Of a stretch of DNA of 32,000 nt, positions 6,773 through 16,572 are shown one piece after another (within the stretch, counting starts at the first letter, position 1; each line of letters opens with the position of its first letter). The notes below the pieces were generated by a model that had not been told where the DNA came from, did no database searches, and saw only the letters and a program-made list of their open reading frames with translations. The stretch lies in the NCBI GenBank assembly GCA_016938815.1, contig JAFGTX010000296.1, positions 1 to 32,000 on the forward strand, written 5' to 3'. The translations under genes and the position numbers were made by a program. The DNA is from Clostridia bacterium. GTDB lineage: Bacteria; Bacillota; Clostridia; Peptostreptococcales; Acidaminobacteraceae.

Positions 6773-8776
6773 TTATGCTTCAAAGAAACTTTCATGATTC
6801 ACGAAGAAGTCGAATTTCGCAGGAATTTCTTTTACTGTGTGACTGTCTTTGTCCTCATAATGTGCTTGGATCGATTCGAGGATATGATCCCATGACCAAA
6901 GGCTATCATCAAGGCCGAGGTAGTCCTTAACGTTTTCTGAGCTAGTTGGTACGACTGGATGAAGCAGTGTCAGACAGACCTTAACGCCGTAGAACATGTC
7001 AGCAAGGACTTGTAGGCGCATTGCGTTGTTATCTTCAGCATCGGCAATCTTCATTTCTCTTGACCAGTATTTACTTAGTTTTCTGATGACGTTGTCTAGT
7101 GTGATGATGACACGGTGGAATTCATGTTGTGCCATGTTGCGCTCGTATTCGTAAACGGCTTTTTCCATCATATCTGTGATTTCGTCGCTGATCGCGTTGG
7201 TTGGAATCGCCCAGTTATTGTATTTTTCGCTTGTGTAGAAGCATGAACGCACCATACGGTTAAATACCTTTGTCAGTAGGAAACCGTCTTTGAGTACTGG
7301 ATCTTCAGCTTTGTTGGTGAAAGTTTCATCCAGTGCCATCGGGTTGAAGCTGACGCTTCTCTTTGAAAGGCCAAGGCTTAGGAAATGCATTCTAAGTTGG
7401 TCGCTCGTATAGTAGTCTAGCAACTCGTGTGCCATAGGTGGCTTGATTGCACCTGAACTGCTGGCTTTTTCATTCATAAAGAGTATATGGTGGTTGGCAA
7501 CCAGTGTTGGGAAGTTCATCTCTGAAATATCCAGTGCACTCATGTCTTTTGATGCACTAGGGTTTTCAGAAGCATAGTAACCCATCAACATAGCCATTTC
7601 AGGTAAGCCGTAGAAATGGATATTGTCTTCGCCAATGAACTGATAGACCTTTGCTTCTGGGTCTGTCCACCATTTGGTCCATGAATCCTTGCTGCCAATC
7701 GAATCCAAATAGGTTTTCGTAAAGGAAATTGGTGCCCAAAGTGACTCAGGCCATACCCAGAAAGTCAAATCTTTCAAATCCTCTTTTTCAGGTACAGGCA
7801 CACCCCATTCGATGTTACCGGTCAATCTGAAAGGCGTGATGGTTTTACCTGAACGGTAACGCACATTGCTGCCGTCTAGCAGTTTCTTTGCAACGTCACG
7901 TTCATCAAGAGAATTGAAGTTGAATGTCACCGATGGTTTCTTTTCGATATCTTCTAATGTACCACCAAGAGAAGCGATGAAGTCTTCTGAAAGCGGTTCG
8001 AATTCTTTTCTTGTAATATGAATTGCCGGTGGCAATAAGAACTCTTCCAGTGTACGGATTACAAGAGGTCTTACACTTCTGTCATTTTTGAGGTTTTCAA
8101 CAAGGGCTTTCAAAGGCTCTGCGAAACGCTCCAAATCGAAGTACCAGTTGCTTGTATTTCTAAGCTCTGGTTTTTCTCCGGAAAGCACACTGATCGGATC
8201 GATCAAATCCTCCGGTGGGTATTGATGTCCTAAGTCGCATTCGTCTGCATAACCTTTTTCGGAAGGACAGCCTTCATAAGGACATTTACCAAGGACTTGA
8301 CGACCATTTAAATAGATGTCGTGAATTGGATCGTAGAATTGAGGACAGCTCAACTCTTTTAAGAAACCGTGGTCATAAAGGAGGTTGAAAACCTCTTCAG
8401 AAACCTTATTGTGCTTCTTGCCGCTGTCGCCAAAGGCAGAAGTGGCATAAAGACTAAGATTGACGTCATAGTTTTCTAAAGTTTGTTTTTGTCTTACGTG
8501 GAAATTGTGAACATAGTCTTCTACAGTGATGTCCACGTTCTCTTTTTCACAGTGGTTTTTATGGCTGGTGATAATCGGTGAACCGTAGCAGTCGGTTCCG
8601 GAAACAAAGATGACGTTGTCTTTGCCGATTCTATCCTTTAAAAATCTTGCATAAGTGTCGGCGTGTACGAATACACCACCGATGTGGCCGAAGTGCAAAT
8701 CCTTATTGCCATATGGCATACCGCCGGTGATGACGGCACGCTTTGGAAATTCAGGTCTTCTAATGTGTTTATTCAT
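6773..8776 (-). CDS. Class I aminoacyl-tRNA ligase of the methionyl-tRNA synthetase family (divergent; KMSKS replaced by KASSS)
   Basis: GGMPYGNKDLHFGHIGG (HIGH region), GTDCYGSPI (cf. MetRS GTDEHG / DDSHGTPI), zinc-knuckle-like CPYEGCPSEKGYADECDLGH, WVWPESLWAPISF (cf. YVWLDAPIGY), YQFIGEDNIHFY (cf. YHFIGKDIVYFH). I prefer the ATG at 8776 (GAGGGAGGaattaccATG) over the track start at 8809. Confidence 0.8.
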   Translation of the reverse strand: MNKHIRRPEFPKRAVITGGMPYGNKDLHFGHIGGVFVHADTYARFLKDRIGKDNVIFVSGTDCYGSPIITSHKNHCEKENVDITVEDYVHNFHVRQKQTLENYDVNLSLYATSAFGDSGKKHNKVSEEVFNLLYDHGFLKELSCPQFYDPIHDIYLNGRQVLGKCPYEGCPSEKGYADECDLGHQYPPEDLIDPISVLSGEKPELRNTSNWYFDLERFAEPLKALVENLKNDRSVRPLVIRTLEEFLLPPAIHITRKEFEPLSEDFIASLGGTLEDIEKKPSVTFNFNSLDERDVAKKLLDGSNVRYRSGKTITPFRLTGNIEWGVPVPEKEDLKDLTFWVWPESLWAPISFTKTYLDSIGSKDSWTKWWTDPEAKVYQFIGEDNIHFYGLPEMAMLMGYYASENPSASKDMSALDISEMNFPTLVANHHILFMNEKASSSGAIKPPMAHELLDYYTSDQLRMHFLSLGLSKRSVSFNPMALDETFTNKAEDPVLKDGFLLTKVFNRMVRSCFYTSEKYNNWAIPTNAISDEITDMMEKAVYEYERNMAQHEFHRVIITLDNVIRKLSKYWSREMKIADAEDNNAMRLQVLADMFYGVKVCLTLLHPVVPTSSENVKDYLGLDDSLWSWDHILESIQAHYEDKDSHTVKEIPAKFDFFVNHESFFEA

Positions 8777-8825
8777 GGTAATTCCTCCCTCATACTTATC
8801 TTTATCCATTACGACTTGTTTTTAC

Positions 8826-9079
8826 TCAATTAAAAAGCCCCTACAGTTATTAACCGTAGGGGCGAGATATCGCGGTGCCACCCTATTTTGCTTAAATAAA
8901 GCCTTGTCGAGTACAGTCATACTCTAGTCCTATAACGCGAACAGACGTCATTGTATCATTTGCAATCCACAATGAAGCTCCAAGTCTTGTTTCCCAAACC
9001 ATGGTACTACCCACTTTCACCAACATGGGTTCTCTGTAAGTCCATTTGAAAGGTACTTTTCTTTTCACAGCCTCTAATA
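8826..9079 (-). promoter_or_regulatory. T-box riboswitch leader with terminator/antiterminator
   Basis: Minus-strand reading: AGAGA box (9035-9031); distal-loop GUUGGUGAAA (9024-9015) closed by ACCCAU/GUGGGU; T-box sequence AAAUAGGGUGGCACCGCG (8888-8871); terminator GCCCCUACGG (8863-8854) pairing with CUGUAGGGGC (8846-8837) followed by UUUUU. The UAGGG of the T-box can pair with CCCUA of the terminator 5' arm, forming the antiterminator. Confidence 0.85.
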
Positions 9080-11947: not shown

Positions 11948-12637
11948 ATGAAAATCATCAATAGGAAATGGATTGCAAGCGGTATGGTCGCTATGACCTT
12001 ACTTGCCAGCGGTTGTCAGACCAAGGTGGCGATGCCGGATACGGTTGAAAGCCATTATATGGCAGCGGAAAAACTGGTAATCATGGCATCTTACGAGGAA
12101 GCATTGACTCAGTATGACGCTGCGATGGTCTGTCTGCAAACAGGGGATGCTGCACAGACAGCGAACGTTTCGAAGGGCATTTTGAACTTCAATATCGGTT
12201 ATTGCTATGAGCAGATTGGGGATTATGAACATGCCATCGAGTACTACACTGCGTCGGGTCAAGACCAAGAGTCTGCCATGCTGGCACGTGTTGCTCTAGG
12301 CGGCGTGTATTTCAAAATGAAAAATTATGAGGCAAGCAAGGCTTGTTATGAAGAAGCGATTGATTTAGAGGCGGATGCTTATGAAGCATACGTTAATTTA
12401 AGTGCGGTTTATTCCCTTGAAGAGAATGATGAATATGCCTTGTTCCTTTTGACTAAGGCGATCGATATAGATGGTGACAAACCGGATGCCTACGTGAATC
12501 GAGCCTATATTTATGCTTGCCTGGGCAATGAGAAAGAGATGAATGCGGACATTCAAAAGCTCAGGAATATGAATTTTGCTGGCTTGGATGTGTATGTGAA
12601 AATATTTAATGATACCTTACAGGAGGTTGAGCGTTGA
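11948..12637 (+). CDS. TPR-repeat lipoprotein
   Basis: Signal peptide with lipobox LLASGC, followed by several 34-aa TPR-like repeats (e.g. GYCYEQIGDYEHAIEYY, GGVYFKMKNYEASKACYEEAI). The stop overlaps the kinase start by 4 nt. Confidence 0.75.
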   Translation: MKIINRKWIASGMVAMTLLASGCQTKVAMPDTVESHYMAAEKLVIMASYEEALTQYDAAMVCLQTGDAAQTANVSKGILNFNIGYCYEQIGDYEHAIEYYTASGQDQESAMLARVALGGVYFKMKNYEASKACYEEAIDLEADAYEAYVNLSAVYSLEENDEYALFLLTKAIDIDGDKPDAYVNRAYIYACLGNEKEMNADIQKLRNMNFAGLDVYVKIFNDTLQEVER

Positions 12638-14619
12638 GAAAGCATTTGCGAATAGTGGTGATAGCTGTGCTGCTTAGTCTACTATGTCATCAAAGCGCCT
12701 TTATGGCGTCAACCGAATGGACCGAACGGTCGATTATAATCGCAGGAGATGAGTACTTTCCGCCCTTTGAATACGTAGACACCAATGGCGTATACAAAGG
12801 GTTTAATATCGATATCATGCATGCGATTGCCATTGAGATGGGGTTGGATATTAATATCGTCCCAATGCGCTGGCGTGATGCTCGTATTGCCTTAGAAGCA
12901 GGCCGGGTAGATGTGATTGAGGGTATTACTGAAACTGATGAAAGAAGAGAGCGCTTGCTGTTTTCAGAGCCTCATTTGGTCACCTCTCAAACGATTTTCA
13001 TTTCTAAGGATAATGATTATATCAAGTCATTGAAGGATTTGGAAGACAAGGTCGTGGCAGTGCAGGAAAATGACGTGTCCATAGACCTTTTATCGACCGT
13101 GCCTCATATCAAGATCGTGACGGAGTCTAATCAACTGCATGCACTGGAACTGCTCGTAGAAGGGAAGGCAGACGCCTATGTGGGCAACCGTGAAACCGGT
13201 CTTTATTCCATTCAGAAGTACGAGTACTACGATCGGGTTAAAGTAATCGGTTCGACGATGAACCAGAAAAATTACTGTATCGCAGTGACCAGAGAGAATG
13301 AAGAACTGCTGAACATTCTCAATGAAGGTCTTAGAATCATCAAGAAAAACGGTATTTACGATAAGATTTACAATAAGTGGTTTGGGGAAGAATTTGCTTC
13401 TCCTCAAGTGATTTTCAAGAAGTACATTTACATGTTTTTTGTAGCGGTATGCCTCTTGCTGGGTATCGTCTGGGTCAATATGCGGATGAACAAGAAACTG
13501 AGAGAAGAGGTGGACAAGCGGACGGAGGAGCTTAAGAACTCCGACTTGTTCAAGGAACACATCATCAACAGTATTTCTGATGGTTTGATTACCTTTGACA
13601 CCAAAGGGGTGGTACAATCCCTTAATAAAAATGTACTGGAGATTTTGCAGGTAGACCCTCACGAAGCCATTGGTCATTTGCTGGACATGATCGATTTTTT
13701 AAAATTTATCGACAGAAAACTGTTTAGAAAGGCTTTGATTGAAGGTGTGTCCTTTATACGCGAAGAATCCGAGATTACCATTCTCGGTCATAATCGGGTC
13801 ATAGAATACAATATTTTACCATTAAAGGATCGTGTAGGTGCCATTCAAGGTATTACAATCACATTCAACGATGTAACGGTGCAACGCAAGAACAGCGAAC
13901 AGATTAAGCGCCGCGACAAATTTGAATCCATAGGACGCCTCACTGCCAATATCGCTCACGAGATTCGCAATCCGCTGACGGCCATTAAGACCTATATCGA
14001 GCTGATTCCTCGGAAAATCAACAATAAGGATTTTCAGGAGCAACTGGTAAAGGATGTGCCTCAAGTCATCGGACGCTTAAATGAGATGATTACAGAGCTT
14101 TTAGAGTACGCAAGACCGAGGGAAGCGAACAAAACGGTATTTGCCTTAGATCGGCCGATTATTGAAGTCTTGAGTTTGGTGGAGGGGGAAATTAATAAGA
14201 ATGCCATTCACTTGGAAACCGAACTGAATCCGGACTGCCACGTTAAAATGGACAGTCAGCAATTCAAGCAAATTCTGATTAATCTCGTGATTAACAGTAT
14301 TCAGGCAATCAAAAACGTTGAGCAACCAACGTTGATCATTAAGACAGTCAAGGACGACGCTGCGTGCTTTATTGAAGTGACGGATAACGGCATCGGTATT
14401 TCAGAGGAGGATCAGGCAGTGATTTTTGAACCTTTTTTCACAAAAAAATCAACAGGAACAGGGCTGGGGCTTTCTATTGCCCAGCAGTTGGCAGAAGAAA
14501 ATGACGGTTATATGACCGTGGACAGCACAGTAAGCGTGGGGACAACCATGCGACTTTATTTACCTCAGTGGGAAGAGGCTTGTAGGGAGGAAAGTTATGG
14601 GAAAAATATTGATCATTGA
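12634..14619 (+). CDS. Sensor histidine kinase with extracytoplasmic family-3 solute-binding (amino-acid-binding type) domain, TM, PAS, HisKA and HATPase
   Basis: N-terminal SBP_bac_3-like region (FPPFEYVDTNGVYKGFNIDIMHAIA...ADAYVGN...YDKIYNKWFG), TM helix YIYMFFVAVCLLLGIVWV, H-box AHEIRNPL, N box LVINSIQA, G boxes DNGIGI and GTGLGL. TTG start. Confidence 0.9.
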   Translation: MRKHLRIVVIAVLLSLLCHQSAFMASTEWTERSIIIAGDEYFPPFEYVDTNGVYKGFNIDIMHAIAIEMGLDINIVPMRWRDARIALEAGRVDVIEGITETDERRERLLFSEPHLVTSQTIFISKDNDYIKSLKDLEDKVVAVQENDVSIDLLSTVPHIKIVTESNQLHALELLVEGKADAYVGNRETGLYSIQKYEYYDRVKVIGSTMNQKNYCIAVTRENEELLNILNEGLRIIKKNGIYDKIYNKWFGEEFASPQVIFKKYIYMFFVAVCLLLGIVWVNMRMNKKLREEVDKRTEELKNSDLFKEHIINSISDGLITFDTKGVVQSLNKNVLEILQVDPHEAIGHLLDMIDFLKFIDRKLFRKALIEGVSFIREESEITILGHNRVIEYNILPLKDRVGAIQGITITFNDVTVQRKNSEQIKRRDKFESIGRLTANIAHEIRNPLTAIKTYIELIPRKINNKDFQEQLVKDVPQVIGRLNEMITELLEYARPREANKTVFALDRPIIEVLSLVEGEINKNAIHLETELNPDCHVKMDSQQFKQILINLVINSIQAIKNVEQPTLIIKTVKDDAACFIEVTDNGIGISEEDQAVIFEPFFTKKSTGTGLGLSIAQQLAEENDGYMTVDSTVSVGTTMRLYLPQWEEACREESYGKNIDH

Positions 14620-15958
14620 TGATGAAAAAACGATTTGCACCTCTCTTCAATTTGCCTTTGAAGATGATTATCAGGTCTTTACGGCCAATAATGTTTACGA
14701 ACTGGAAAAGATGTTGGCAGAAGAGAATTTTGATGTGGTGCTGTTGGATTTGAAATTTGGTAATGTGAGCGGACTAGATCTTATTGGTCCAATCAAGCAG
14801 TGCAACAAGCACACCGCTGTAATCATGATGACTGCATACGCCAGTGTCGAATCGTCTATAGAGGCGATGAAGCGAGGAGTTTACGATTACATCATAAAAC
14901 CGATAGATATTACGAAGTTGACATTCTTGATCCACAAAGCGATGGACTTCAAGCGTTTGAATGAACGTGTTAGTTTGTTAGAAAAAGTGGCAGAGAAAAG
15001 GGAGCAAAATCCTCAAATTGTGGGCTCCTCAAAAAAGATGCAGGATATCTTCCATATTATCGATAAGGTGAAAGACATCGAAATGAACGTTTTGATAGAG
15101 GGACCTAGTGGTACGGGTAAGGAACTGGTGGCCAGAGAGATTCACTATCGTGGCAAGCGTAAGGACCAGCCTTTTGAGGTGGTGAATTGCGGTGCTATTC
15201 CGAGCACTTTGATAGAAAGTGAGCTTTTTGGTTATGAGAAGGGCGCTTTTACAGGTGCTGCGGCTAAAAGGAAAGGCATGTTCGAACTGGCCAACAGTGG
15301 CACTTTGTTCCTAGATGAAATCGGTGAGATGGATTTACACGCCCAAGTTAAACTTTTAAGGGTTCTGCAGACTATGGAAATCTTTCCGCTGGGTTCTGAG
15401 AAAAGTAAAAAAGTCGATGTGCGTATTATCGCTGCGACCAATAAAGACCTTAAGGAAGAGGTCAGAAAAGGCAATTTTAGAGAAGACCTCTATTTCAGAC
15501 TCAATGTCATCTCCATTGGCATGCCGTCCCTCAATCAGCGTATTGAAGATTTGCCACTGCTCATTGAGCATTTCATCCAAAAAACGGCACTGGATTTTGA
15601 TTTGCCAGTAAAGAGCGTAAGCCGTGAGGCATACAATGCCCTTGAACACTATGAGTTTCCCGGAAACGTCAGAGAACTTCAAAATATTATCGAGCGTTCA
15701 GTAGTATTTGCTAGCAACGATGTCATTGAACTGGCGGATTTACCTGAGATGATTACGGAGCATCAGATCCCACTGAATCGGTCGGCTAAAATTGTTCCTA
15801 TTACTATCGGTATTACGCTGGCTGAAGTGGAGCGTATCATGATTGAGGAAACCTTGGCGCATAATGAGGGCAATCGAAGAAAAACGGCGGAACAGCTAGG
15901 GATTAGCGAGCGTAACCTGCGCTATAAAATCAAAGAATATGCAGAGGATGAATTCTAA
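14597..15958 (+). CDS. NtrC-family sigma-54-dependent response regulator (REC + AAA+ + Fis-type HTH)
   Basis: Receiver domain (DVVLLDLKF), Walker A GPSGTGKE, the sigma-54 contact loop ESELFGYEKGAFTGA (GAFTGA), and a C-terminal HTH RRKTAEQLGISERNLRYKI. Overlaps the kinase gene by 23 nt. Confidence 0.92.
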   Translation: MGKILIIDDEKTICTSLQFAFEDDYQVFTANNVYELEKMLAEENFDVVLLDLKFGNVSGLDLIGPIKQCNKHTAVIMMTAYASVESSIEAMKRGVYDYIIKPIDITKLTFLIHKAMDFKRLNERVSLLEKVAEKREQNPQIVGSSKKMQDIFHIIDKVKDIEMNVLIEGPSGTGKELVAREIHYRGKRKDQPFEVVNCGAIPSTLIESELFGYEKGAFTGAAAKRKGMFELANSGTLFLDEIGEMDLHAQVKLLRVLQTMEIFPLGSEKSKKVDVRIIAATNKDLKEEVRKGNFREDLYFRLNVISIGMPSLNQRIEDLPLLIEHFIQKTALDFDLPVKSVSREAYNALEHYEFPGNVRELQNIIERSVVFASNDVIELADLPEMITEHQIPLNRSAKIVPITIGITLAEVERIMIEETLAHNEGNRRKTAEQLGISERNLRYKIKEYAEDEF

Positions 15959-15977
15959 AAAGAGGAAATATTTGCCT

Positions 15978-16004
15978 ACCCTGCAAAATTTGCAGGGTTT
16001 TTTA
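15978..16004 (+). terminator. Intrinsic terminator of the two-component operon
   Basis: ACCCTGCAAA-A-TTTGCAGGGT (15978-15998) followed by TTTTTTATT. Confidence 0.8.
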
Positions 16005-16082
16005 TTGTTTATAGAACAGCCATAGAGGGATAAACGTGTTTGAATTGTTGAAAAATAGCCATTCTTCATTCGTGAGATAAGT

Positions 16083-16098
16083 TGGCATTAAACTTGCT
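16083..16098 (+). promoter_or_regulatory. Sigma-54 (-24/-12) promoter
   Basis: TGGCAT TAAAC TTGCT compared with the consensus TGGCAC-N5-TTGCW, with exact GG-N10-GC spacing. It lies 125 nt downstream of the sigma-54 activator gene. Confidence 0.7.
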
Positions 16099-16108
16099 AT
16101 ATAATAGG

Positions 16109-16255
16109 ATGTTATGGTTGCGGTTATTCAAAACCCTAAATTAAAAGTTCTACTTCAATCTCCCTAGAACAGAATAACGCAACTGAAGTATAACGTCGCT
16201 TCCCCGAGCGATTGCAAAGGCTTGTTTCCCCGAACAAAGCCTTTGTTTATTTTTT
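16109..16255 (+). ncRNA. Candidate sigma-54-dependent small RNA with C-rich (UUCCCCGA) hairpin loops
   Basis: Bounded by the sigma-54 promoter and a strong terminator. Long stem 16116-16129 / 16172-16183. Hairpin CGCT/AGCG (16197-16210) with loop TCCCCG. Terminator stem 16215-16226 / 16233-16245 with loop TCCCCG, followed by TTTATTTTTT. The 5' end is predicted only from promoter geometry. Confidence 0.5.
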
Positions 16256-16294: not shown

Positions 16295-16323
16295 TTGACC
16301 GATGCTTGAAAAAGGTCTATACT
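16295..16323 (+). promoter_or_regulatory. Sigma-A-type promoter for the aro leader
   Basis: TTGACC (16295-16300), a 17-nt spacer, then TATACT (16318-16323). Confidence 0.65.
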
Positions 16324-16356
16324 TCTAATCAATATAAAAAGTGGAAGGTGTTCAAC

Positions 16357-16479
16357 ATGATGAACTTAGCAAATCAATTGACCACAACTGCATATGAGTA
16401 TTTTTATGGTTTTACTTGGGCTTACTATTTTAGCGCAGGTTATTCGTCATACAAAAAAATACTGGCAGTTTCTACTTAA
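16357..16479 (+). CDS. Aromatic-rich leader peptide (40 aa) of the aroF-tyrA operon
   Basis: GGAAGGTG lies 6 nt upstream of ATGATG. The peptide is MMNLANQLTTTAYEYFYGFTWAYYFSAGYSSYKKILAVST, with 7 Tyr, 3 Phe and 1 Trp among residues 13-32. It sits between a promoter and a terminator directly upstream of aromatic amino-acid biosynthesis genes. Confidence 0.55.
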   Translation: MMNLANQLTTTAYEYFYGFTWAYYFSAGYSSYKKILAVST

Positions 16480-16518
16480 GGGAAAAACCACAACAAATTA
16501 TACAGACGTATGAATTTT

Positions 16519-16555
16519 AGGAGTGTTCCGTTGGGACACTCCTTTTTCGATTTTT
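16519..16555 (+). terminator. Intrinsic terminator (putative attenuator) upstream of aroF
   Basis: AGGAGTGTTC (16519-16528) pairs with GGACACTCCT (16534-16543), followed by TTTTTCGATTTTT. It ends 17 nt before the aroF RBS. Confidence 0.75.
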
Positions 16556-16572
16556 GAGAGGGAGGAAGAACA

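Follow-up and report, generated by a model that had tools for sequence, protein, structure and literature searches.

A predicted structured RNA behind a conserved -24/-12 promoter next to an NtrC-type activator gene in Clostridia

The locus and the predicted RNA

The window analysed here is the whole stretch of 32,000 nucleotides formed by positions 1 to 32,000 (forward strand) of contig JAFGTX010000296.1, from a Clostridia bacterium (GCA_016938815.1), and the element in question is a segment at 16083–16255, in which a promoter of the -24/-12 type is followed by a predicted non-coding RNA of ~148 nt (16108–16255, + strand), recognized from its fold, an alignment of homologues, RNAalifold, pair counts and a covariance model. 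The segment lies downstream of a sensor operon whose last gene (14597–15958, +; TAA stop at 15956–15958) encodes an NtrC-type response regulator, a sigma-54 enhancer-binding protein of 453 aa identical to GenBank MBN2899583.1 from a 'Clostridia bacterium' metagenome-assembled genome. Pfam searches detect receiver (Response_reg), Sigma54_activat (E = 7e-72), AAA-lid and HTH_8 domains in this protein, and these domains, together with the GAFTGA motif, confirm the assignment made in an earlier note on this DNA, which was written from the letters alone. Directly 3' of the activator gene, a hairpin with a T-run (15978–15998) resembles a terminator. Taken together, the comparative data point with high confidence to a functional, activator-linked non-coding RNA gene.

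The promoter, TGGCATTAAACTTGCT, reads TGGCAT-TAAAC-TTGCT at 16083–16098 (+) and is an exact match to TGGCAY-N5-TTGCW; its GG (16084–85) and GC (16096–97) dinucleotides are separated by N10, and both this spacing and the start 125 nt past the activator stop agree with the earlier note. Taken alone, the match is weak evidence: the exact motif occurs twice in the 32-kb window, and matches with ≤1 mismatch are not enriched in it (4 found, 2.8 expected). The second exact match (7419–7434, −), located inside the coding sequence of a Met-tRNA synthetase and with no palindromes near it, is probably due to chance. Since the promoter match alone is statistically unremarkable, the case rests on comparative data.

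The predicted folding energy of the segment 16109–16256 is -39.4 kcal/mol (z = -4.68 relative to dinucleotide shuffles), and the fold comprises a helix closing the 5' and 3' ends, a long stem, an inner hairpin, a second hairpin (hairpin 2) and a bulged 14-bp terminator hairpin. The long stem P1 (16116–16183, +) pairs GGTTGCGGTTATTC (16116–16129) with GAATAACGCAAC (16172–16183) with one bulge, and encloses both an unpaired ACCCUAA (16133–16139) and the inner hairpin GUUCUA/UAGAAC (16147–16152 and 16165–16170), whose 12-nt loop carries UCUCCCU (16159–16165); the 'CCC and UCCC tracts' that the earlier note had placed inside this stem are present and can be refined to these two invariant unpaired motifs. 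Hairpin 2 (16195–16212, +), GUCGCUU-CCCC-GAGCGAU, holds the octamer TTCCCCGA at 16200–16207, and the intrinsic terminator (16214–16255, +) consists of the bulged hairpin at 16214–16246, with a UCCCCG loop and the octamer again at 16226–16233, followed by UUUAUUUUUU, with TTTATTTTTT at 16246–16255. The octamer has no other occurrence in the 32 kb. The long stem with one bulge, the hairpin, the terminator and the octamer shared by the two loops are all found where the first reading of the sequence had put them; the TCCCCG loops stand as sequence at their positions but not as open loops, being predicted to form CCCC tetraloops closed by a U.G pair.

Conservation of the RNA and of its control region

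A protein search with the activator returned graded homologues, from 92% down to ~50% identity, those with genus names at about 60% identity belonging to Crassaminicella, Caminicella, Acidaminobacter and Tindallia. The contigs of twelve activator homologues were examined, and a pattern scan of metagenomes added two further loci; that scan gave nine stretches, of which three are true homologues (L091, L094 and L096, the last equal to L082) and the other six chance matches in high-GC coding DNA. A scan of a genome collection with the activator protein returned L001–L080, which are generic NtrC paralogues (≤46% identity) and not orthologous loci, as the conserved FLDEIGEM word dominated the search. 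Eight further distinct homologues of the RNA, all from metagenomes, were found in this way, giving nine with the window, and the RNA always follows an orthologous lipoprotein(TPR)-kinase-activator operon. The activators of these RNA-type loci (L081, L082/L096, L094, L085, L091, L088, L100/L101 and L102/L103) are 80–92% identical to that of the window, and the operons start with the TPR gene wherever the contig extends far enough upstream.

The nine distinct RNA sequences were aligned (alignment A1), and identities were calculated between the seven lineages with complete activator genes: identity is 31% (saturation) at four-fold synonymous sites, 46% in the spacer that separates the palindromes from the promoter, 74% in the activator coding sequence and 82% in the RNA. 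RNAalifold arrives at the same long stem, hairpin 2 and terminator. In the five-helix structure of 43 pairs, 96.9% of the cells are standard pairs, versus 32–47% when the partners are slid by 1–3 columns; compensatory double changes affect eight pairs (four in the long stem, four in the terminator), and the observed pairing values were reached by none of 500 shuffles. On the opposite strand, several of the invariant U.G pairs would become A.C, which assigns the RNA to the + strand. Only one of the 18 positions of hairpin 2 varies, the first base being G in the window and A in the other sequences (G.U versus A-U), and in L085 and L091 the inner hairpin GUUCUA/UAGAAC is swapped for CUUCA/UGAAG, with CUCCC still in the loop. 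The alignment of orthologous regions, a check proposed in the earlier note, reveals conserved -24/-12 boxes, covariation in the long stem and terminator, and near-invariance of hairpin 2. The U-tract is present in seven of the nine homologues and degenerate in L082 and L094; these two carry a ~130-nt insert after the RNA terminator (L082 6665–6800) built around long, GC-rich inverted repeats, AAAAAGGACAGGCCCAAAGGCGAGAG…CTCTCGCCTATGGGCCTGTCCTTTTT, perhaps a small mobile element or repeat that supplies a substitute terminator.

A small peptide was considered and rejected, no open reading frame (ORF) being conserved on either strand and the longest, in L082, having only 12 codons. The absence of a conserved ORF, the covariation and a conservation far above that of neutral sites bear out the initial view that this is not a protein gene. 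Searching with a covariance model derived from A1 gives a single hit in each RNA-type locus (154–178 bits) and none in the transporter-type loci described below or in three unrelated loci. Rfam (4227 models) gives no match on 16083–16255 at the gathering score or at E ≤ 10, and none in five homologous loci, the weak matches all falling on the terminator of the activator gene; the RNA, for which an Rfam scan had been suggested at the outset, is thus outside the Rfam families, and LhrC, 6C, CrcZ, NrsZ, GlmY and Qrr are among those without a match. No similarity to the RNA was found in plasmid and phage collections. These comparisons show the predicted RNA to be non-coding, structured and under strong purifying selection.

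The control region is conserved as well. TGGCAY-N5-TTGC[TA] is invariant in 9/9 RNA loci, 118–125 nt past the activator stop, and it is this conservation at a fixed distance across all nine related loci that makes the promoter convincing; it also fits the SigL consensus of C. difficile, TGGCA-N6-[AT]TGCT[AT] (PMC7438776). Upstream of it lie two candidate activator sites, GAAATATTTGC (15965–15975), a GCA-W5-TGC palindrome centred 113 bp upstream of TGGC, and GCAAAATTTGC (15983–15993), of the same type and centred 95 bp upstream, the latter forming the core of the terminator-like hairpin and T-run that follow the activator gene. In RNA-type loci, the centres of the tandem 11-bp palindromes lie at about -114/-96 relative to TGGC; the corresponding positions in transporter-type loci are -123/-105. 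The spacing is always 18 bp, and the same pair is present in Crassaminicella thermophila. In L100 the palindrome is retained and the T-run lost, which suggests selection on the palindrome itself. Tandem sites at such a distance (about 80–150 bp upstream) are expected as the upstream activator sequences of an NtrC-type protein (see also PMC6615313), and the two palindromes are accordingly candidate binding sites of the adjacent activator.

Between the palindromes and the promoter, the alignment contains a conserved A-rich box, TTGAAAAATAG (16048–16058), found 25–35 bp before the -24 element of RNA-type loci (~6447–6457 in L082, and others); transporter-type loci have GAAATTTTCAGAAAA immediately upstream of TGGC in its place. 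The A-rich box may correspond to a bend or to a third half-site of the activator. Conservation is absent from the alignment between -12 and +1 and resumes at UGUUAU, ~12–13 nt past the -12 GC, so that the start of the RNA is placed at about 16108–16110, where a sigma-54 start would be expected.

Neighbouring genes and the transporter-type loci

The first gene of the sensor operon (11948–12637, +) encodes a TPR-repeat protein matching Pfam TPR families, whose translated N-terminus, MKIINRKWIASGMVAMTLLASGC, resembles a lipoprotein signal peptide (…TLLASGC). It overlaps the start of the second gene (12634–14619, +), which encodes a sensor histidine kinase with an extracytoplasmic SBP_bac_3 (solute-binding) domain followed by PAS, HisKA and HATPase_c domains, as assigned by Pfam on the translation. 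The TPR gene is found in RNA-carrying loci only (the window, L081, L082, L085, L088, L100 and L102); it was not seen upstream of the kinase gene in the transporter-type loci L084, L086, L087, L098 and L104, and L099, which ends inside the kinase gene, is uninformative on this point. The glrK-qseG-glrR operon of Enterobacteria also encodes an accessory lipoprotein, and the TPR protein may likewise assist its kinase from outside the cytoplasm, as an analogue of QseG in the GlrK-QseG-GlrR-GlmY system; the likeness is one of analogy only, as the two proteins are not homologous. The presence of rpoN in the source genome is implied only by the intact, selected activator gene.

In a second class of loci, with activators 60–77% identical to that of the window (L098, L086, L099, L087, L084 and L104, the last being Crassaminicella thermophila CP042243), the activator gene is followed by the -24/-12 promoter, a short leader and an operon for a TAXI (NMT1_3) protein and a fused DctM TRAP-type transporter. 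The same promoter and tandem palindromes thus front a TAXI-TRAP operon in distant homologues, including Crassaminicella thermophila, and the RNA has apparently taken the place of the transporter as the local output. The gene orders suggest that the transporter is probably the ancestral local target of this kinase-activator family, and that the RNA appears to have replaced the TAXI-TRAP operon as promoter-proximal output. The earlier proposal that the RNA may be the direct output of the adjacent kinase/NtrC pair is strengthened by this architecture, which drives the transporter in relatives: judged from the gene arrangement, the RNA is very likely the local output of the pair. Homology between the RNA and the transporter leaders was considered and rejected, since the covariance model matches none of the leaders. 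The sensor domain and the TAXI-TRAP partner in related systems suggest an amino acid or a dicarboxylate as the solute sensed.

Assembly GCA_002919055.1 holds both the RNA-type locus L082 and the transporter-type locus L086; as it is a metagenome, this co-occurrence is no proof of paralogy within one genome. In two transporter-type loci, a second, one-component sigma-54 activator (~680–690 aa) is encoded divergently from the kinase gene (L084 869–2917, −; L087 740–2815, −), next to an M20 peptidase gene, and those genomes therefore hold several sigma-54 activators.

Downstream of the RNA, the gene order varies. An independent unit comes next in the window, L081 and L102/L103: under a sigma-70-like promoter of its own, TTGACC-17-TATACT (16295–16323 in the window), it consists of an aromatic-rich 40-aa leader ORF, a terminator, and the genes for DAHP synthase and prephenate dehydrogenase. 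In L082, L085, L088 and L100, a WG_beta_rep gene, accompanied in two of them by a glyoxalase gene, stands between the RNA and the aromatic unit. The downstream neighbour is therefore not constant (leader and DAHP synthase in three lineages, WG_beta_rep in four), which links the RNA to the activator gene and not to the downstream gene.

The leader ORF, MMNLANQLTTTAYEYFYGFTWAYYFSAGYSSYKKILAVST, is an observation in its own right. It is conserved and spans 40–45 aa, of which 11–13 are aromatic (Tyr/Phe/Trp), and has its own sigma-70-like promoter and ribosome-binding site; within the leader region of the window (16295–16572), the ORF occupies 16357–16479 and a strong terminator (16519–16543) lies immediately upstream of the DAHP synthase gene. 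Counterparts are found in L081 (6773–6895), L085 (8716–8853), L088 (8286–8408), L100 (8298–8435) and L103 (~2150–2285). Folding of 16395–16556 shows the terminator (z = -3.75) and no obvious antiterminator. From its composition and position, the ORF looks like a ribosome-stalling attenuation leader peptide for aromatic amino-acid biosynthesis, similar to pheL/trpL. In Firmicutes, the norm for aromatic amino-acid control is the T-box or TRAP, and such a leader peptide, if real, would be unusual. Elsewhere in the window, an ordinary T-box leader (8855–9077, −; Rfam RF00230, 108 bits) precedes the Met-tRNA synthetase-like gene (6773–8809, −).

Mode of action, alternatives and significance

Small RNAs (sRNAs) that are the output of a phosphorelay-controlled sigma-54 activator include GlmY, with GlrK-QseG-GlrR in Enterobacteria, and Qrr, with LuxO in Vibrio; both are unrelated to the window RNA in sequence, and GlmY acts by mimicry towards a protein (RapZ). 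In Pseudomonas, crcZ lies directly downstream of cbrB (cbrAB-crcZ) and is RpoN/CbrB dependent. The NrsZ sRNA gene of Pseudomonas aeruginosa follows ntrC (ntrBC-nrsZ), and its -24/-12 promoter needs that activator (PMC4253122); the sigma-54 dependence of GlmY is cited in PMC3162934. NrsZ, CrcZ and other proteobacterial sRNAs encoded beside their own sigma-54 activator are the closest architectural analogues of the window RNA, sharing with it an sRNA gene that adjoins the NtrC-family activator gene of a two-component system. They differ in belonging to Proteobacteria instead of Clostridia and, as the lack of an Rfam match indicates, in sequence and structure: NrsZ is made up of three processed repeat modules and the Hfq/Crc-binding motifs of CrcZ are A-rich, whereas the motifs of the window RNA are C-rich. 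In the sigma-54 regulome of Desulfovibrio, four non-coding RNAs, encoded next to activator genes, have been predicted, likewise by comparative genomics from a conserved -24/-12 promoter and activator sites (PMC4641369); these belong to another phylum and the RNAs themselves are unrelated.

The C-rich motifs point to a different set of relatives. Four of them are unpaired and invariant while the adjacent stems vary: ACCCUAA, in a long internal loop, and AAUCUCCCU, in the 12-nt hairpin loop, each with an unpaired probability of ~0.9, and UUCCCCGA and UYUCCCCGR, which cap hairpin 2 and the terminator, respectively. RsaE/RoxS, LhrC and 6C, which act on G-rich ribosome-binding sites, likewise present several unpaired UCCC-type motifs in loops, single strands and the terminator loop. 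Their promoters are of the sigma-70 type, in contrast to the -24/-12 promoter and enhancer-binding protein of the window RNA, which, given the lack of an Rfam match even at E ≤ 10, is not a member of these families; the C-rich motifs shared with RsaE/RoxS are a likeness of design, not of descent. Some of these sRNAs are under the control of two-component systems, as LhrC is of LisRK (PMC4132741). By analogy, it is plausible that the C-rich motifs are anti-Shine-Dalgarno seeds, and the common design with RsaE/RoxS, LhrC and 6C favours a trans-acting, translation-repressing sRNA.

The mechanism that would follow begins with the membrane kinase, which would sense an extracellular solute through its solute-binding (Venus-flytrap type) domain, probably together with the TPR lipoprotein, and phosphorylate the NtrC-type activator. 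The activator would bind the two tandem GCA-W5-TGC palindromes just past its own gene and, from there, drive open-complex formation by sigma-54 RNA polymerase at TGGCAT-N5-TTGCT, so that transcription would start at about 16108–16110 and stop at the intrinsic terminator (16214–16255). The RNA would then act in trans, its ACCCUAA, AAUCUCCCU and UYCCCCGR loops pairing with the G-rich Shine-Dalgarno regions of distant mRNAs and lowering their translation or stability, in a manner similar to RsaE/RoxS and LhrC. Transcription and its requirement for sigma-54 and the activator, the start site, the base-pairing action, the targets and the signal are all inferred here, and the full mechanism of a stand-alone, sigma-54- and activator-dependent trans-acting sRNA pairing with G-rich ribosome-binding sites is favoured only modestly.

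The search for targets close to the RNA was negative. The feedback on the TPR gene envisaged in the earlier note is not supported, as the GGGGAA in the ribosome-binding site of that gene is present in the window only and is not conserved in six orthologous loci; a match between CUCCCUA and UAGGGAGG in the ribosome-binding site of the activator gene was rejected for the same window-specific character. A duplex-energy scan that covered six lineages and the ribosome-binding region of every neighbouring gene they share gave the best average for DAHP synthase, but with pairing sites and registers that differ between lineages, and this score was rejected as evidence because any Shine-Dalgarno region pairs with a C-rich RNA.

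Several points weigh against the base-pairing sRNA proposed above. No conserved complementary site was found in the ribosome-binding regions of the neighbouring genes (TPR, kinase, activator, DAHP synthase and others). For seed pairing, the 4-nt CCCC tetraloops predicted to hold two of the four C-rich motifs are small. Hairpin 2, stem and loop together, is unchanged at 17 of 18 positions although neutral sites have diverged to saturation, and this pattern suits recognition of the whole hairpin, by a protein or by a long pairing, no less than it suits a short seed. In the window, the promoter is overlapped by a weak sigma-70-like match, TTGGCA-17-TAGGAT (9/12); the terminators of L082 and L094 lack a U-tract, so that the transcript may be longer there; and the comparison includes only nine sequences, from one clade.

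The invariance of hairpin 2 (16195–16212) in the nine sequences, where other stems covary, also supports an RNA that sequesters a protein, titrating a factor that recognizes the repeated C-rich loops (UYCCCCGR tetraloop hairpins, CUCCCU) as CrcZ does with Hfq/Crc or CsrB with CsrA. The repetition of the motif in two similar small hairpins and the poor quality of CCCC tetraloops as seeds are consistent with this explanation, as is the precedent of CrcZ, an RpoN/CbrB-dependent RNA encoded next to cbrB. To our knowledge, however, no bacterial global regulator binding C-rich loops has been reported; the two most accessible motifs lie in long single-stranded stretches and not in the hairpin repeats, and C-rich or UCCC loops, including those of terminators, are typical of Gram-positive base-pairing sRNAs, for example LhrC (PMC4132741) and 6C (PMC6486639). 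Sequestration is regarded as unlikely, yet hairpin 2 and the two predicted tetraloops make it a serious competitor of the pairing model. A more specific version, in which the RNA, as the sole dedicated promoter-proximal output that replaced the TAXI-TRAP operon, is a decoy for an RNA-binding protein recognizing UYCCCCGR hairpins, is less probable still; if true, it would give Gram-positive bacteria an equivalent of CbrB-CrcZ that works through a new protein partner.

The downstream genes raise the question of a cis-acting 5' leader, in which the sigma-54 promoter would serve WG_beta_rep and the terminator would be conditionally read through. This gene is on the same strand in four of the seven lineages, 60–230 nt past the terminator, and the degenerate U-tract of L082/L094 could be understood in these terms. 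Nevertheless, the window, L081 and L102/L103 have no WG_beta_rep gene next to the RNA, their aromatic operon having its own promoter and leader, and the RNA is equally conserved in both downstream contexts. The terminator is strong (14 bp and a U-tract) in seven of the nine sequences, RNAalifold shows no conserved antiterminator pairing, and the WG gene is preceded by a conserved GGATATAAAT box, maybe its own -10 element. A role as a cis-acting leader is thus improbable.

The RNA could also be real and yet not sigma-54 dependent, being transcribed from an overlapping sigma-70-type promoter or derived by read-through or processing from the 3' untranslated region of the kinase-activator transcript. 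The sigma-70-like match that overlaps the -24/-12 boxes in the window would allow the former, and the loss of the T-run from the hairpin after the activator gene would make read-through possible in L100. In contrast, the GG, the GC and their spacing are invariant while the -10-like stretch between -12 and +1 varies freely, a terminator-like T-run hairpin stands between the activator gene and the promoter in the window and in most other loci, and the transporter operon of related loci is driven from a promoter of the same architecture; an origin independent of sigma-54 is very unlikely on these grounds. Finally, a functionless, decaying leftover of the leader and promoter of a lost transporter operon, which the identical place of the promoter in transporter-type loci and the lack of a transporter in RNA-type loci might suggest, is effectively refuted by the conservation data, namely the 82% identity of the RNA against 31% at neutral sites, the compensatory changes in its pairs and the lack of similarity to transporter leaders in the covariance model, and deserves almost no credence.

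In summary, the RNA constitutes a new family of a known functional kind and is the probable first sigma-54-dependent sRNA for Firmicutes. The author of the earlier note was not aware of any such sRNA described in Clostridia-like Firmicutes, and none was found in the searchable literature, which covers few subscription journals and provides absence of evidence only; the sigma-54-dependent sRNAs in that literature are from Gram-negative lineages only. The reconstruction of the sigma-54 regulon of Clostridiales lists no RNA targets (PMC6615313), and the sigma-54 activators of Clostridia are numerous, the targets reconstructed for them so far being, without exception, protein operons that serve the metabolism of amino acids, sugars and solvents (PMC6615313, PMC7438776). 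As the clade is uncultured, the scope for experiments is limited, and the mechanism is one that would be expected rather than surprising. If confirmed, the circuit leading from a two-component system through sigma-54 to an sRNA would also exist in Firmicutes, and Rfam would gain a well-defined family supported by covariation. It would also indicate that a post-transcriptional regulator can take over from a transporter operon as the local target of a transcriptional activator, with the promoter and the enhancer kept.

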